Assembly (NCBI GenBank): GCA_020723345.1
Contig: DYJA01000011.1
Span: forward strand, 43,349 to 107,348
DNA length: 64,000 bases
Origin: Candidatus Aquidulcis sp.
Lineage (GTDB): Bacteria > Chloroflexota > Anaerolineae > UBA4142
Reading direction: 5' to 3'
The notes under the pieces are model-generated. The model was not told the origin of the DNA. It searched no databases and saw nothing but the letters and a program-made list of their open reading frames with translations. The position numbers and the translations under genes are program-made. Shown piece after piece: positions 1-14,994 of this stretch; positions within the stretch are counted from its first letter, which is position 1, and every line of letters begins with the position of its first letter.

Positions 1-1316
1 TTCAGCGCAAACGTATCGTACTGACTGCGATGCGCTTCATCTGCCATCACGATGATATTCGAGCGTGGGGAGATTTCGGGGTAGAGACGACCCGCCGGGT
101 CGTCTCTACGCGTGTGGAATTTCTGAATCAGCGTAAAGACATAGCGATGGTCTTCGCCCAACAATCGTTTGAGATGTTCGCCGCTATCGGCGCGCACATC
201 CTTGGGGTCTTCAATCACCGCAGCGGTGCGGACAAAGTTTTTGTAAATCTGATCGTCGAGGTCGTCGCGGTCGGTGACGACGACAAAGGTGTAATTCCCG
301 CCGAGTTTGCGGAGAATCTTTTGCGAGAACATCACCATCGAATAACTCTTGCCGCTGCCCTGGGTGTGCCAAAAGACGCCGAGTTTTCCACGATTCTTGC
401 CGATGCGTTCGACAGCGGCAATCGCGTTGTTCACGCCGAGGTATTGATGGTTCTTGGCGACGAGTTTACGTAAGCCGCCCGTGCTTTCTTCAAAGAGGAT
501 AAAGTTTTCGACGAGGTCGAGCAAGCGCGTGTGTTCGCACGTGCCGCGAATCAGCGTTTCCAGCGAGACGACGCCTCGCTCGCCTTCCGAGTTGATGCGC
601 TTCCATTCGGCAAAGTGGTCCCATTCGGCGGTGATGCTTCCGATGCGGCTGTCGCTTCCGTTCGAGAGAATGATGAACGCGTTGTACCAAAAGAGTTGGG
701 GGATTGTGTTCTTGTAATCGCGCAGATTGTCGTGGTAGGCGTCTTCGACATCTTTTTGCGGTGCTTTCAACTCGACAAAAACGAGCGGAATGCCATTGAC
801 AAAACCAATGAGGTCGGCGCGGCGTTTGTACATCTCGCCCGTGACCCAGAATTGCGACGCGAGGAAATAGTCGTTCTGGGCGGGATCGTCCCAGTCAATC
901 ACGCGAATCGTTTCGGCGATGTCTTGTTCATCGTCGTCGCTTCGCACCGTGACCTTGACGCCGTTCTTCAGCAAACGATACACATCGCGATTGGCGGCGG
1001 CAAGCGTCATCGCGCTGCGGTCGCGCGTCAGTTCTTCGACGGCAGCGTCAATCGCATCGCTGGGCGCGTTCGGATTGAGACGACGCAACGCATCGCGCAG
1101 ACGCGCCACCAGCACAACCTCGGCGGACGTTTCGCGACCAACGTAGAGACGTGTCGGTGACACGTCTCCGAGACGACCCGCGTAGAGACGTTCCGCCGGA
1201 ACGTCTCTACCGAATATTTCATCGTAACAATTTGCGGTCTCCCAACCCAATTGCGCAAACAGCGCAATCGCGGGTTGTTCCACCAAGGCGTCTTCGGTGT
1301 AATCGTTGGGGATCAT
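1..1316 (-). CDS. hsdR: Type I restriction endonuclease R subunit (HsdR), N-terminal part; 3' end lies beyond the left window edge
   Basis: Absent from the ORF track because it runs off the edge. My own minus-strand translation starts at ATG 1316-1314: MIPNDYTEDALVEQPAIALFAQLGWE... It has Walker A GVFWHTQGSGKSYSMVMF (GSGKS codons 359-345) and DEAH box IIVMADEAHRSQYD (DEAH 41-30). The plus-strand ORFs at 30-1160 are shadows of this gene. Confidence 0.9.
   Translation of the reverse strand, partial: MIPNDYTEDALVEQPAIALFAQLGWETANCYDEIFGRDVPAERLYAGRLGDVSPTRLYVGRETSAEVVLVARLRDALRRLNPNAPSDAIDAAVEELTRDRSAMTLAAANRDVYRLLKNGVKVTVRSDDDEQDIAETIRVIDWDDPAQNDYFLASQFWVTGEMYKRRADLIGFVNGIPLVFVELKAPQKDVEDAYHDNLRDYKNTIPQLFWYNAFIILSNGSDSRIGSITAEWDHFAEWKRINSEGERGVVSLETLIRGTCEHTRLLDLVENFILFEESTGGLRKLVAKNHQYLGVNNAIAAVERIGKNRGKLGVFWHTQGSGKSYSMVMFSQKILRKLGGNYTFVVVTDRDDLDDQIYKNFVRTAAVIEDPKDVRADSGEHLKRLLGEDHRYVFTLIQKFHTRRDDPAGRLYPEISPRSNIIVMADEAHRSQYDTFAL
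81..109. repeat. REP-like 29-nt perfect palindrome GTAGAGACGACCCG-C-CGGGTCGTCTCTAC, located inside the hsdR ORF
   Basis: 14-bp arms read directly from the sequence. The hsdR frame stays open across it (..FHTRRDDPAGRLYPEISPRSNIIVMADEAH..). Confidence 0.85.
1143..1210. repeat. Cluster of REP-like palindromes (GTAGAGACGTGTC-GGT-GACACGTCTC, a partial unit, then GTAGAGACGTTCCG-C-CGGAACGTCTCTAC) inside the 5' part of hsdR
   Basis: Read directly. Translated in the hsdR frame it gives ..FGRDVPAERLYAGRLGDVSPTRLYVGRETSAEVVL.. with no stop. Confidence 0.85.
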
Positions 1317-1321
1317 TGGCG

Positions 1322-1903
1322 TTACATCCGCAAACCAACGGGATTATCCTTGTCCTTGTCCCAATTGGTGGGGTTATTGATGATGTACGCGCGCACCGCA
1401 TCCAACGCGCGTTCGTTGCGAATAATTTCGTCGTGGAATCGTTCTTGCCAATCGAAATCTCCGTGTCCTTCCGCGCGGATGCGTTTGGTGCAAACCGATT
1501 TGATTTGCCCGATGATCGAGCCAAGGGAATTGGGTTGCAATCCCGTAGAGACGTTTCGGTGAAACGTCTCGGATCGGGTTGTCTCGGAGACGGGTCGCCG
1601 TGTAGAGACGGGTCGCCGACCCGTCTCTACGGTGTGCGTAATCCAAATAATTCCGTGCAAATGATTTGGCATCACAGCCCATTCGTCCAATTGGACATTG
1701 GCGCGCACCTGCGGCGTCTTTTGCCATTCATCCGCGACAATGTCACCGATGGGTGACAGGTTCATCTCGCCATTGACCACGTCGCCAAAATAACAAACGC
1801 GATTTTTAGCGCAGATGGTGACGAAATACAATCCAGGGGATGAATAATCCCAACCGCGTAACCGCGTGGATTCGATGCGATATTTGTTTTTGAACAGGGT
1901 CAT
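1322..1903 (-). CDS. REP-associated tyrosine transposase (RAYT, IS200/Y1-like HUH enzyme)
   Basis: ORF 1322-2020, trimmed to ATG 1903-1901 (MTLFKNKYRIESTRLRGWDY...). HUH motif MPNHLHGII. C-terminal RFHDEIIRNERALDAVRAYIINNP (YIxxNP Tyr motif). Flanked and interrupted by REP palindromes. The upstream 39 codons of the track ORF are REP sequence. Confidence 0.85.
   Translation of the reverse strand: MTLFKNKYRIESTRLRGWDYSSPGLYFVTICAKNRVCYFGDVVNGEMNLSPIGDIVADEWQKTPQVRANVQLDEWAVMPNHLHGIIWITHTVETGRRPVSTRRPVSETTRSETFHRNVSTGLQPNSLGSIIGQIKSVCTKRIRAEGHGDFDWQERFHDEIIRNERALDAVRAYIINNPTNWDKDKDNPVGLRM
1545..1630. repeat. REP-like palindrome cluster inside the RAYT ORF (GTAGAGACGTTTC-GGT-GAAACGTCTC ... GTAGAGACGGGTCG-C-CGACCCGTCTCTAC)
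   Basis: Read directly. It is translated in frame as ..ITHTVETGRRPVSTRRPVSETTRSETFHRNVSTGLQ.. between the HUH motif and the LGSIIGQIKS segment. Confidence 0.85.
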
Positions 1904-1919
1904 TGTTTCCGCCCCCTCC

Positions 1920-2028
1920 GTAGAGACGTTTCGGTGAAACGTCTCTATCACCAATATGACGCAACGTGTCGCCGCGTAGAGACGCGCCGTTGGTGCCTCT
2001 CGGAGACGTGTCACCGACACGTCTCTAC
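1920..2028. repeat. REP-like palindrome cluster filling the hsdS-RAYT intergenic space
   Basis: GTAGAGACGTTTC-GGT-GAAACGTCTCTA at 1920-1946 and GGAGACGTGTC-ACC-GACACGTCTCTAC ending at 2028. The terminal GTCTCTAC supplies the hsdS stop codon (CTA at 2025-2027 = TAG on the minus strand). Confidence 0.85.
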
Positions 2029-3200
2029 GACACCCGAATATCCAATCCTTCCACCTCCACCGCGCCCGAAATCAACTTGGGCAACAGCAGGTCGCGGGTG
2101 CGGCGGAGGTTGATATTCTTTTGACCCAGGATTTCTTTTTCAACAAAGAAGTCTTTGGCGATACTGTGGAATAAATCAAGCGTTCTTTTGGGAGGGATGA
2201 GAATGTCTGCTTTCTCAAAATCTGACGCGCTAACGGCTGGATAAGCCGCACCCGTAGCGTGATTTGTAAGATAACCTACAAAGTCGTCTGTGGTCATACT
2301 TTGATACAAATAGGTGTAGGGAACTTGTTTTGCGCCAATCACTGCAAATCCTGTAGATACAATCAAATTGGGGAGTGGCTTGAGAATCAGCGAAAAAGAT
2401 TTCCGATTGGGGCGAACCATTGACCAGATAATGTCGCCATCTTTTACGATGCGTCGCGCTCTACCTGGTGCATCTACAAAAGGCATTAGTTGTATCGTTT
2501 CGATTTGTCCTGTTGTCACAGATGCGATATCAACGTAGTTGATTTCTATTGGCTCTTCACCTTTTTTGACGCTTGATTTGTTGACTTCAGCAATCTCACC
2601 CAGTTCTACAATCTCCCACCCCTCTGGCACTTGCCCCAACCGCGAATTTACCATCCGTACTTTTGCGTGACCTGGGAAACGGAAATTCACAAACCACTCG
2701 CGGTAGAGCATCTGCGCCATCTCTTCCAGAATCTTGATGCGGCGCGTGTTGTTCTCGATGAGGTCGTCGTAGGCGGAGAGGATGGCAGCGATTTTGCGCT
2801 GGGTAGAAAGAGACGGAATCCGTACTGGCAACAGATGAAGAGCGTTTCTATTCAACCCTGGAACTGCGGCGGCAGCACTTTGAACACCAAGTCCGAGCGT
2901 GCCAAGAAAATACTTGACGAATAGAGGATCGTTGCCTTTGAAATCTTTGACAAACAAGGTTGTGTTATGGGGCCAAAAATCTTCTTTGACAAAGTAGACT
3001 TCGCCCAACGTACCGTATCTGCCTGTGACAACTCCTGGGCCATCGACTTTTGCCGTATCGTGGTATCCAGTAATTCCAGATGATGTTACTATCGGTACAT
3101 TTCCCTCGCGGCGATCTCGTTCAGGAAGATCATAACCTCTCTGCAATGTTAGCACATCACCAAGTTTGGTTTTTGTCCAAATCCTTGATTTCGTTTTCAT
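2025..3200 (-). CDS. hsdS: Type I R-M specificity subunit (HsdS)
   Basis: 391-aa ORF. Central conserved helix IPSLSTQRKIAAILSAYDDLIENNTRRIKILEEMAQMLYREWF and C-terminal RRTRDLLLPKLISG, with two variable target-recognition halves. Lies between hsdM and hsdR. Confidence 0.9.
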   Translation of the reverse strand: MKTKSRIWTKTKLGDVLTLQRGYDLPERDRREGNVPIVTSSGITGYHDTAKVDGPGVVTGRYGTLGEVYFVKEDFWPHNTTLFVKDFKGNDPLFVKYFLGTLGLGVQSAAAAVPGLNRNALHLLPVRIPSLSTQRKIAAILSAYDDLIENNTRRIKILEEMAQMLYREWFVNFRFPGHAKVRMVNSRLGQVPEGWEIVELGEIAEVNKSSVKKGEEPIEINYVDIASVTTGQIETIQLMPFVDAPGRARRIVKDGDIIWSMVRPNRKSFSLILKPLPNLIVSTGFAVIGAKQVPYTYLYQSMTTDDFVGYLTNHATGAAYPAVSASDFEKADILIPPKRTLDLFHSIAKDFFVEKEILGQKNINLRRTRDLLLPKLISGAVEVEGLDIRVS

Positions 3201-3260
3201 CGCGTTTGTTTCAATAGCCCTTGCACATTCTTATTTATTCGTTCTTCCAACTCGTGCGCT

Positions 3261-3941
3261 TCAACTTCTCTCCGAATCAGTCTGCGCGAACCATAGGTTG
3301 CTCAATCGCCGCGCCTCTGCCTCGCAGAATGCTTTGACCTGTCCCCAACTCACTGGCGCGAGCAGGATGGGGTCTTGCTGTTGGTCGGCAATCGAGAAAT
3401 CTACGAGCGCGGTCAGCAGGCGCATTCGCACACCGCGCGAATAGGAATACTTGTCCTCCCAACGCGCCACGAGTTCGTCCAGCGGAACGTGGGGCGCGAC
3501 GAAATAAACGTCGTAGAAATCCTTGCGCATACCGCGCCCCATGAGCGCATCCAGTTTCATCAGCCCAACGTCCATCAGCCCCGCGATCTCGACCCCACTG
3601 ACCGAATCGGTCGGCGCGAGCAGCGGATACCCGTAGGTAAAGTAACTCATCGCGAGTCCGTCCACTTCGATCACCAAACCCAGAGGCGAATCTTGCAAAA
3701 TCGTCACCGCATGGGCGCGGCGCAGTTCTGTCACAATGCTGCGGCGTAAATCATCCGTCAGATTCTCGATGTTGGCAAACAGGTCGAGGTCTTGGGAGAT
3801 CCGATGACCCAAACGGAGCGCGAGCGCGGTACCGCCGCCAAGATAGAACGGATGCAATAGTGGCATCGTACCCAGGATCGCCAATAACTCTCTTGTTTTA
3901 GGAACCACAGCTTGCCAATGCGGCGCGGCTAGTGTTGCCAT
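3261..3941 (-). CDS. Nucleotidyltransferase AbiEii/AbiGii-family toxin-like protein
   Basis: 226 aa. Motif FYLGGGTALALRLGHRISQDLDLF is typical of the AbiEii/DUF1814 NTase fold. Overlaps the upstream small gene by 13 nt. Confidence 0.8.
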   Translation of the reverse strand: MATLAAPHWQAVVPKTRELLAILGTMPLLHPFYLGGGTALALRLGHRISQDLDLFANIENLTDDLRRSIVTELRRAHAVTILQDSPLGLVIEVDGLAMSYFTYGYPLLAPTDSVSGVEIAGLMDVGLMKLDALMGRGMRKDFYDVYFVAPHVPLDELVARWEDKYSYSRGVRMRLLTALVDFSIADQQQDPILLAPVSWGQVKAFCEAEARRLSNLWFAQTDSERS

Positions 3942-4240
3942 ATTCGTTCACCTTGCGCGCAATCGCGCAGATCGAAGAACCACGTCCAAAATGTGAATCG
4001 TCGTTTGGGCAAACACCGCCAACCCGCTTGCCGCACCCACTCCGCCAGCCGCTGGGCGCCATAGCGCACAAAGAGCCAGCGCAACTCCAACCAGTCGCCC
4101 CACGCCAACGTTCGCTCGATCACCGTAAACGCGCTGCGCTCGGGGTCGAGGTCTTCCAAGTTGTATTCTTGGAAAAAAGGGCGCAGACTCAATGGGATGC
4201 CTGCTGGCGTCATTTCGAGTTGATCATCCTGACCTGCCAT
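3929..4240 (-). CDS. Small partner protein of the AbiEii-like gene (resembles the DUF6922 family from memory); putative antitoxin/regulator
   Basis: 103 aa. ..[51 protein letters not shown]. Overlaps both the hsdM stop and the AbiEii start, which suggests translational coupling. Confidence 0.45.
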
Positions 4241-5864
4241 CTGTTCTCGTCTCCCGATTCTCTGCGAGCATCGCCACGTTCTCAGCGATTTTCTCCTCCA
4301 AGCCGCGCGCCTCGATATTCAGCGTTTCCAATTCCTCGTTCAATTCTTCCAAGCGTTCCTTGAAATCAAAATCATCGGCGGCTTTTTCGGCAACGCCCAC
4401 GTATCGCCCAGGATTCAAACTCCAACCCTGCGCTTCAATCTCTTTCAGCGTTGCCACCTTGCACAAGCCTGCCACGTCGCGATATTTCCCTTTTGGAAAG
4501 TTCGCTTTCATCAACGCCGCGCTATCGTCGTCGGTTTCGATTTCCTCGCCGCGATACAAGCGCACAATGTTGCCCAGGAATTCGATCTGCGCGGGCGTGA
4601 ATTCGCGGTGGGCGCGGTCAATCTGTTGGTAAATGTTGCGCGCATCAATGAACAACACTTTGCCTTTTCTCCCCTCCCTTGTTACTGACGGGGGAGGGTT
4701 AGGGTGGGGGTGTGCTTTGCCCTTATCCAAGAACCACAACGTGCAAGGAAGCGTAACCGTGTAAAAGAAATTGGAACCGACCGCGACCATCACGTCCACC
4801 ACGTCGGCTTGGATCATCTGCTTGCGGATTTCCATTTCGGACGCGCGCGCGTCGCTCGCGGAATTCGCCATCACGAAACCCGCACGTCCTGTTTTGTTCA
4901 ACGAACTATGGAACAGTTGAATCCACAGGTAATTGGCATTGTCCACCTTTGGCATCCCAAATGGAAAGCGCGCCTTGTCATCCTTGATGCGATCCTTGTC
5001 CACTTTGTCCACATTGAACGGCGGATTCGCCATCACAAAATCGAATTTGCCGACCGCCTTGTGTACATCGTCATAGTACGAATTCGCCTCGCGGATTTGT
5101 CCCGATAGTCCGTGCACCGCCAGATTCATTCGACACAAGCGAACCGTCTCCGCCGTTTTCTCCTGACCGAAAATCGAAATCTCATCGTTCGGCTTGCGCT
5201 TGTGCCGTTCGACAAACGCCGCGCTCTGTACAAACATACCACCCGATCCCGAGGCGGGGTCAAAGATGCGCCCGTGAAACGGCTCGATGATCTCGACAAT
5301 CAATTTGACGATAGAGGTCGGCGTGAAAAACTCGCCGCCCTTTTGTCCCTCGCTCATCGCAAACTTGCCGAGAAAGTATTCGTAGATTTTGCCGAACGCG
5401 TCGCCCTCGATGTCCATCGGGATTTCGTTGAAATCGCGCAACAGTTCGACGAGCGTATTGTTTTCGAGCCGCTTGTACGTCTTGGGCAAAACGTCCTTGA
5501 GTTCTTCGTTCTCCGCTTCGATGGCTTTCATCGCATTGTTGATCGCGGTCGCCACGTCCGCGCCTTCGGGCAAATTGAGCAAGCGATCATAGCGCGCTTC
5601 GTCGGGCATAAACATCACGCCGCGCGCTTGATAATCGTACTTGCTGACCTTGCGGCGTCCCGATGCTTTGCTCTGCAATTCCTTTTGCGCCTGCGCGAAT
5701 TTGTGATCGGCATAGCGCAGAAAAATCAATCCCAGGACAGGGACCGAATACTCGGACGCTTTTAATTTGGAATTGGCACGCAGGCGATCCGCCGCGTCCC
5801 AAAGTCGTTTTTCGATTTCGGTGTTGTTGGCTACCAATCGAATGCTCCTGACCCACAAATACAA
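4224..5864 (-). CDS. hsdM: Type I R-M N6-adenine DNA methyltransferase subunit (HsdM)
   Basis: 546-aa ORF. Motif [12 protein letters not shown] and motif [10 protein letters not shown]. The N-terminus [19 protein letters not shown] is typical. The real start is probably TTG at 5837, preceded by AGGAG. Confidence 0.95.
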
Positions 5865-6075
5865 ACGCCCGCCCTGGCATCAAGACCTGAGCGGGCGACC
5901 ATACAAACTCTCATCCGCCTGAGGTGGTCGTTCAACCTGGGCACTACTTTGCGGCGTCCACAATAGCCAAACGAGGCATTTGTATTTGGCTGATTCAATT
6001 ATACCCCAGACTTTGGGGAATGGCAATAATCGATCCAGCCAACGCGCTGATCCTGATTTGGGTTCATGTTAATCG

Positions 6076-14957: not shown

Positions 14958-14994
14958 GATGGGAGACAGTTCGGTGTCTCCCATCTTTTTGTTT
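14958..14994 (+). terminator. Rho-independent terminator
   Basis: GATGGGAGACA-gttcgg-TGTCTCCCATC followed by TTTTTGTTTC. Sits between convergent genes. Confidence 0.75.

Follow-up and report, generated by a model that had tools for sequence, protein, structure and literature searches.

How can palindromic repeats run through neighbouring genes of one operon while the reading frames stay open, and are such genes tolerant of the repeats or inactivated by them? The question is raised by a 64,000-nt stretch of contig DYJA01000011.1 from Candidatus Aquidulcis sp. (Chloroflexota; referred to throughout as the window), in which repetitive extragenic palindromic (REP) units lie inside the hsdR gene of a type I restriction-modification (R-M) operon and inside the gene for a REP-associated tyrosine transposase (RAYT), and supply the stop codon of hsdS. 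Here, we describe window positions 81-2029 as, most probably, a REPtron, in which a single-copy RAYT and its cognate REPs are located between hsdS and hsdR; we infer that the REPs were seeded locally and that the proteins decorated by them are working. The anatomy of the region, its family membership, the foreign origin of the two hsdR segments and the loop location of the RAYT segment come directly from the comparisons given below. The features concerned are:

81-109: hsdR site 2, a single unit GTAGAGACGACCCGCCGGGTCGTCTCTAC with a 14-bp perfect stem, encoding RRDDPAGRLY just before the motif II strand
1143-1210: hsdR site 1, made up of 1143-1168 (unit whose far foot is degenerate), 1170-1180 (half unit) and 1182-1210 (perfect unit), encoding RDVPAERLYAGRLGDVSPTRLY
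1545-1630: REP cluster in the RAYT (86 nt), made up of 1545-1570 (unit), 1587-1600 (half unit) and 1602-1630 (perfect unit), encoding VETGRRPVSTRRPVSETTRSETFHRNVST
1920-1948: REP unit upstream of the RAYT, 17 nt from its start, core identical to internal unit 1548-1570
1976-2029: REP pair made up of 1976-2001 (degenerate unit) and 2003-2028 (unit), the outer foot giving the hsdS TAG (2025-2027, minus strand)
3-1316, minus strand: hsdR, N-terminal 438 codons (Pfam HSDR_N 9e-49, SWI2_SNF2 3e-43, ResIII), continuing past the window start
1322-1903, minus strand: RAYT, 193 aa, TnpA-Y1 subclass 2.4 / RAYT group 4
2025-3200, minus strand: hsdS, 391 aa, two target-recognition domains (Pfam Methylase_S, two stretches)

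REP units and their RAYT

The REP unit is a 29-nt palindrome, GTAGAGACG-N5-N-N5-CGTCTCTAC, in which the nine outer base pairs are constant and the inner five vary. The inner stems, each present with its complement, are ACCCG, TGTCG, TTCCG, TTTCG (twice), GGTCG and TGTCA, with one further unit degenerate (1979-2001). Eight GTAG-footed hairpins of the form GTAGAGACG-N11-CGTCTCTAC are found at 81-2029 and none in the other 62 kb of the window, and all 11 exact copies of GTAGAGACG fall within 81-2028. The core GAGACG-N11-CGTCTC occurs eight times, always within 84-2025, against a chance expectation of 0.16. Perfect hairpins of at least 9 bp, sought over the whole window, comprise seven REPs in 81-2025 and three unrelated ones in the other 62 kb. 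As single strands, the REP clusters fold better than shuffled sequence (z -4.8 to -8.0). The units are double-footed, a GTAG foot being matched by its 3' complement on perfect stems of 10-14 bp, and the copies share this foot while their variable inner stems are compensated. An earlier reading of these letters (the preliminary description) had called the repeats REPs and placed them at 81-1630; their nature and the start of the cluster hold, and the cluster continues to 2029 through three extra spacer units (1920-1948, 1976-2001 and 2003-2028). Within the 64 kb viewed, every REP copy is located within 2 kb of the RAYT; the 16-mers flanking group 4 RAYTs are reported to be low in copy number, about 14 per replicon. 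An unrelated perfect 11-bp hairpin, GATGGGAGACAG TTCGGT GTCTCCCATC, is present as a single copy at 14958-14985, with a GAGAC/GTCTC core and no GTAG foot.

The open reading frame (ORF) among the REPs had also been called a RAYT, and its homologues, motifs and fold bear this out. At E <= 1e-5 there are 1,935 homologues, and the source records call several of these 'REP element-mobilizing transposase RayT'; a HMMER scan of 1.8 billion cluster representatives yielded 1,231 clusters at E <= 1e-30. The Pfam match to Y1_Tnp is weak (2.7e-4), and a sequence-only search of the PDB with the RAYT gave no match. The protein carries the motifs MPNHLHG, DWQERF and AYIINNP, with H81 and H83 (HUH), W152, Q153 and Y173 invariant across 23 aligned sequences; its HUH motif has L where the published NH[IFV]H lists I, F or V, and at this position I, V, L, F and M all occur among orthologues. 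The start codon (ATG at 1903, with GGAGG upstream) was assigned by comparison with orthologues. An AlphaFold (AF2) model has a predicted local distance difference test score (pLDDT) of about 90 in its core, and its top Foldseek match is 4er8_A, the E. coli TnpA-REP bound to REP (E 2.9e-6; target-normalised template modelling score 0.61; root-mean-square deviation 2.2 A over 159 columns at about 19% sequence identity), followed by structures of ISDra2 and IS608 TnpA.

Length (193 aa), motifs (NHLH, WQ and YIINNP) and double-foot REPs all fit the subclass 2.4 row in Table 1 of Quentin et al. (2018; BMC Genomics 19:475, PMC6006769), as does REP placement, with REPs on both sides of the gene (1920-2029 and 1143-1210) and within it (1545-1630). 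Together with the fold match, these features identify the RAYT as a member of TnpA-Y1 subclass 2.4, which is RAYT group 4 of Bertels. Its motifs predict an HUH/Tyr single-strand DNA endonuclease; experimental demonstration of binding and cleavage of single-stranded REP DNA is limited to the E. coli protein and two further TnpA-REP proteins (PMC8266576).

REP segments in the RAYT, hsdR and hsdS

Read on either strand, the REP palindrome offers the same three frames: one is open and reads VET....VST, one is open and reads RD.....RLY, and the third carries a TAG. The RAYT uses the first and hsdR the second, and the end of hsdS lies in the third. The preliminary description had reported each of the three arrangements that follow, namely a RAYT ORF open through its cluster between the HUH and Tyr motifs, an hsdR open through two REP sites, and an hsdS stop codon that is part of a REP unit, and all three are found as it gave them.

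Across 1545-1630, the RAYT ORF reads TGRRPVSTRRPVSETTRSETFHRNVST between MPNHLHG and RAYIINNP, and the DNA of this cluster folds with z -5.7. In the AF2 model the REP-coded residues (89-126, pLDDT <50) form what is predicted to be a disordered loop between the HUH strand (81-88) and the next helix (127-144). This internal REP is not a local accident; it is almost universal among RAYTs of subclass 2.4 and already published: Quentin et al. (2018) described in-frame REPs between the HuH and Tyr motifs within tnpA-REP genes, and modelled them as a variable peripheral extension or loop. At least one VET-xRRx-VST unit is present at the equivalent spot in 22 of 22 aligned RAYT orthologues (61-91% identical), with copy number ranging from one to about twelve, and a REP-like peptide is found in 120 of 120 close homologues (an exact unit in 78, degenerate or split units in the others). 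In 79 RAYT loci from species-representative genomes (Chloroflexota, Cyanobacteria, Bacteroidota, phyla of the candidate phyla radiation (CPR), Acidobacteriota, Nitrospira and others), perfect hairpins of at least 11 bp occur at 2.70 per kb between HUH and WQ, compared to 0.07 in the rest of the ORF and 0.14 in the flanks. The most stable 34-nt hairpin of the ORF falls in the HUH-WQ interval in 70 of 78 loci (medians -19.6 vs -10.2 kcal/mol). Subclass members in which the segment is absent also exist (L002, L012, L041, L044 and others; L and P numbers denote related loci and proteins). The internal REP is an old, family-wide feature with drifting copy number. The RAYT orthologue P0122/L083, 91% identical to that of the window, has one slightly degenerate unit where the window has 2.5 units (+17 aa, +51 nt), and only these extra 1.5 units are local to the window.

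In hsdR, the minus-strand frame of 3-1316 is open for 438 codons through both REP sites. Site 1 encodes FGRDVPAERLYAGRLGDVSPTRLYVGRETSAEVVL, residues 35-69 of HsdR (DNA 1143-1210, folding at -26.8 kcal/mol, z -5.4), and site 2 encodes TRRDDPAGRLYPE, residues 406-418, with the DEAH box seven residues downstream; both peptides agree with those quoted in the preliminary description, which had also placed the second just upstream of DEAH. Its suggestion that REP-free orthologues could define the insert boundaries was productive. The closest REP-free HsdR is P0016 (85% identity), and the closest with DNA is L086, from a metagenome scan (83% amino acid and 80.6% DNA identity), with an hsdR frame that runs uninterrupted over at least 1,003 codons; both REP segments are absent from the HsdR of L086 and from that of L082. 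In a 15-orthologue alignment, the window HsdR is 18 aa longer at site 1 than 13 of the 15 orthologues, and 4 aa longer at site 2 than the orthologues covering it. At site 2, the window reads CAC ACG C, then GTAGAGACGACCCGGCGGGTCGTCTCTAC, then CCC, vs CAC ACC GCG CAA GGC GAA ACA TAT CCT in L086, such that 30 nt replace 18 nt and RRDDPAGRLY stands for AQGETY (net +12 nt). At site 1, the 68-nt cluster replaces four or five native codons (net +54 nt). Both sites coincide with indel positions of other orthologues. Judged by these alignments, both hsdR segments are foreign, replacing short native stretches in what appear to be indel-prone loops. The window HsdR aligns with EcoR124I HsdR (2w00) over residues 133-434, an alignment that covers site 2 only and places it between a helix and the motif II strand. 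A template-switch origin of site 2 by microhomology (native GAGAC...TAY vs the REP feet) was considered and rejected, since the lengths need an extra 5-nt deletion.

The hsdS ORF ends in GTG TCG TAG, giving a protein that terminates in LLPKLISGAVEVEGLDIRVS, and its TAG is that of the GTAGAGACG foot at 2020-2028. Comparison of the hsdS C-termini with those of L083 and L003 showed that in L083, too, a REP foot provides the TAG that ends hsdS, and Di Nocera et al. (2013; PMC3733652) found REP-supplied TAG stops to be frequent and in-frame intragenic REPs to occur as well. Between hsdS and the RAYT, a spacer of 121 nt holds three REP units. The spacer REPs (1917-2032) can pair into one long REPIN-like hairpin (-40.7 kcal/mol, z -8.0), which takes in the hsdS stop and terminates 17 nt short of the start codon of the RAYT.

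Seeding, retention and competing explanations

If the RAYT acts like E. coli TnpA-REP and the transposases of IS200/IS605, it would bind the hairpin in single-stranded DNA, read its GTAG foot, and cut and rejoin the strand. It would seed REP copies mostly near its own gene, and because the RAYT sits in a tightly packed operon, with the hsdR ATG 5 nt after the RAYT stop (1314-1324), new copies would land in coding DNA. A copy would then survive only if it reads in an open frame, changes the net length by a multiple of three and falls in a permissive loop; for a copy in the TAG frame, the extreme end of a gene would be the sole permissible place, and hsdS is such a case. The net changes in the three genic clusters (+12, +54 and +51 nt) are divisible by three despite a 29-nt unit, which argues for selection on the reading frame after REP arrival. 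Seeding followed by such survival would account for REPs lying within 2 kb of the RAYT, for the frames that they use, for their position in loops and for the hsdS stop.

Several observations weigh against this account. Local seeding accounts poorly for the loss of native codons, as a simple cut-and-paste insertion predicts otherwise than 30 nt for 18 nt, and for the recurrence of REPs at the same HsdR sites: REPs are present at identical HsdR positions in lineages whose nearest relatives are clean, for which random landing followed by selection is a weak explanation. Tolerance as surface loops had been offered by the preliminary description as one of two outcomes; for the two hsdR sites it gains no support from modelling, the AF2 prediction for the HsdR fragment, made with a 16-row alignment, having a mean pLDDT of 51 and being too poor for surface placement. 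The C-terminal portion of hsdR, about 60% of the gene, lies beyond the window. Among related loci, the hsdR of L084 (138-3394) is split into two ORFs by a 1-nt deletion or frameshift, and that of L081 (3087-11359) is split at a REP half-site; L081 also has a frameshifted hsdM, a fragmented hsdS and a RAYT frameshifted after its REP.

The related loci show that the association seen in the window is recurrent. A RAYT is located between hsdS and hsdR in L083, L081 and L003 as well, and directly upstream of hsdR on the same strand in 7 of the 72 related metagenome hsdR loci with enough upstream sequence. These seven RAYTs are subclass-2.4-like and 29-60% identical, with gaps of 3-229 nt to hsdR and one of 1,140 nt. 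Viewed from the RAYT, a type I hsdR or hsdM is found within 4 kb in 5 of 80 genome RAYT loci. Loci with RAYT-R-M linkage are L003, L081, L083, L088, L092, L093, L101, L110, L120 and L134, and also L027, L048, L057 and L061. The site 2 REP recurs with an identical junction in L084 (1342-1370) and L088 (2937-2965), and L003 has a REP at site 2 (5840-5876) with a GCAG..CTGC foot and a GCCCG inner stem; the site 1 REP recurs in L081 (8113-8141) and L120 (1055-1101). A single ancestral insertion at each hsdR site was rejected: by the identity matrix, the loci closest to the window are L086 and L082, and both are REP-free. Such recurrence points to constraint, to recombination or to hot spots where REPs were gained repeatedly. 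The linkage of RAYT and hsdR receives no mention in the RAYT literature searched, and restriction genes are not mentioned in PMC6006769; the recurrence of RAYTs immediately upstream of hsdR, and of REPs at two HsdR positions, may be new. In L081, a Fic gene is present between the RAYT and hsdR. The palindrome at site 1 of L120 is 47 nt long and in frame, its outer TTCCG-type unit apparently split by an inner GTAGAGACGCCC... unit.

Rather than neutral passengers, the intragenic REPs might be maintained cis-elements, serving as hairpins, in DNA or in RNA, to which the RAYT binds or which affect transcription or translation; they could, for instance, throttle expression of the RAYT and of hsdR, the stop of one lying 5 nt from the start of the other. 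Across phyla, nearly every subclass 2.4 gene keeps the hairpin, with stem changes that compensate each other, the site 2 unit is identical at 28 of 29 bases between the window and L084 when the genes are 69% identical in DNA, L003 retains pairing at site 2 via two double changes, two HsdR positions recur in scattered lineages, and RAYTs sit directly upstream of hsdR in the loci counted above. We nonetheless consider such maintenance unlikely, as subclass members such as L002 manage without the REP, about 115 of 120 HsdR orthologues are REP-free, and re-seeding from the genomic REP pool or hairpin-templated repair could preserve pairing without selection. A related proposal, that RAYTs of subclass 2.4 recurrently reside within operons of the type I R-M kind, immediately upstream of hsdR on its strand, with REPs either site-directed to two HsdR loops or kept to modulate hsdR expression, is one that we regard as quite unlikely.

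The REP-bearing genes might instead be inactivated or decaying pseudogenes with frames open by chance, the second outcome raised in the preliminary description. The split hsdR genes of L081 and L084 indicate that REP-bearing hsd genes can be pseudogenes, or that these assemblies have errors; L081 may be a long-read assembly with indel errors, as its name ('contig_49712') suggests, and the window itself shows just 438 hsdR codons. Decay is very unlikely here, given that the three REP clusters are stop-free with the net lengths that mark frame selection. The motifs of the visible 438 HsdR residues are also intact (nuclease D168/E182/K184, Walker A GSGKS at 320-324 and DEAH at 425-428), and the window hsdM, hsdS and RAYT are full length. 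L003, which has the same gene order, encodes an HsdR of 1,062 aa open through three REP segments and an HsdM carrying one. Tolerated loops are thus favoured over inactivation, with R-M activity itself predicted from sequence.

It is scarcely credible that the palindrome-coded peptides are native, as the apparent conservation of VETxRRxVST in all close RAYT orthologues might suggest, or that the open frames are assembly or sequencing artefacts, since this conservation obeys DNA base-pairing rather than amino acid similarity (unit residues 4 and 7 pair as the stem requires, F/N, P/G, S/D or G/P, in 77 of 83 units vs 21.8 expected if independent), the internal stems differ among genomes yet remain perfect 14-bp palindromes, REP units also occupy non-coding spacers, the REP-free orthologues that might have shared the peptides are without them for both hsdR (L086, L082) and the RAYT (L002 and others), and independent assemblies show equal in-frame REPs, including L084 and L088, which were assembled from two different samples and share one.

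Relation to known systems and neighbouring genes

The locus shows no essential difference from described subclass 2.4 / group 4 REPtrons (PMC6006769; Bertels et al., 2017, PMC5581495), in which, as here, a protein of about 194 aa carries NH.H, WQ and YIxNNP, and double-foot REPs (5' GT[AG]G, 3' C[TC]AC) lie within +/-1 kb and in frame inside the gene. What distinguishes the window REPtron is its nesting in a type I R-M operon, with REPs in hsdR as well. E. coli TnpA-REP (4er8; Ton-Hoang 2012, PMC3333891; Messing 2012, PMC3479197) and the window RAYT are alike in fold, in HUH motif and single Tyr, in the GTAG foot and in having the gene flanked by REPs; the E. coli protein belongs to subclass 2.2, with single-foot REPs, bulged stems and no REP within the gene (PMC6006769), unlike the window. 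GTAG REPs located wholly in ORFs with the frame unbroken, as here, were described by Di Nocera, De Gregorio and Rocco (2013; BMC Genomics 14:522), who noted that intragenic REPs often come as dimers or clusters that code for 20-30 aa, and that genes for DNA helicases or repair are frequent hosts; the text of the supplementary files of that paper, intragenic-REP list included, contains no restriction or transposase genes. The names of the nearest HsdR and RAYT homologues point to a Chloroflexota-like host for the REPs of the window. In-frame REPs and REP-supplied stops are therefore already described, both for this RAYT subclass and for REPs generally, and the window is a further instance.

The preliminary description had likened the palindromes to Rickettsia palindromic elements (RPEs). 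This is a fair analogy, in that RPEs, as cited from Ogata et al. (2000) in PMC3733652, are in-frame palindromes in coding genes thought to be tolerated as surface segments, and it does not extend to membership. According to the account in PMC3733652, RPE-1 is longer and short RPEs are CGTC-tagged, whereas the window elements are 29-nt, GTAG double-foot units with a cognate RAYT adjacent.

For annotation, it is useful that VETxRRxVST and RDxPxxRLY peptides in Chloroflexota and Cyanobacteria proteins are REP footprints and not domains. The presence of a RAYT upstream of hsdR at about 10% of related type I loci, along with the recurrent HsdR sites, offers a testable handle on how REP targets are chosen and on the role of the RAYT in its host. 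If REPs were directed to, or kept at, HsdR loops, the 'domesticated' RAYT would have acquired a definite function for its host, the tuning of restriction.

The remaining genes of the operon complete the minus-strand order over 1-5864, which in the sense of transcription is hsdM, DUF6922, AbiEii-like, hsdS, RAYT and hsdR:

4224-5864, minus strand: hsdM, 546 aa, the first operon gene visible (Pfam N6_Mtase 9.5e-84, HsdM_N)
3929-4240, minus strand: DUF6922 protein gene (Pfam), between hsdM and hsdS
3261-3941, minus strand: AbiEii-like nucleotidyltransferase gene (Pfam), between hsdM and hsdS

With hsdM, hsdS and hsdR all present and bearing diagnostic domains and motifs, and with the window HsdR 60-85% identical to many HsdR proteins, the operon is of the type I R-M kind, and methylation and restriction are its predicted activities. 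At 4670-4720 (minus strand), hsdM has a proline-rich insert of about 16 aa that the L003 HsdM is without; the DNA of this insert contains a weak CCCTCCC/GGGAGGG stem, but as a single copy in the window that folds no better than shuffled sequence it gives no sign of another repeat family. The AbiEii-like and DUF6922 genes (3261-4240) may form an AbiE-type toxin-antitoxin pair, and L083 has, at the equivalent position, an AbiEii 96% identical to that of the window.

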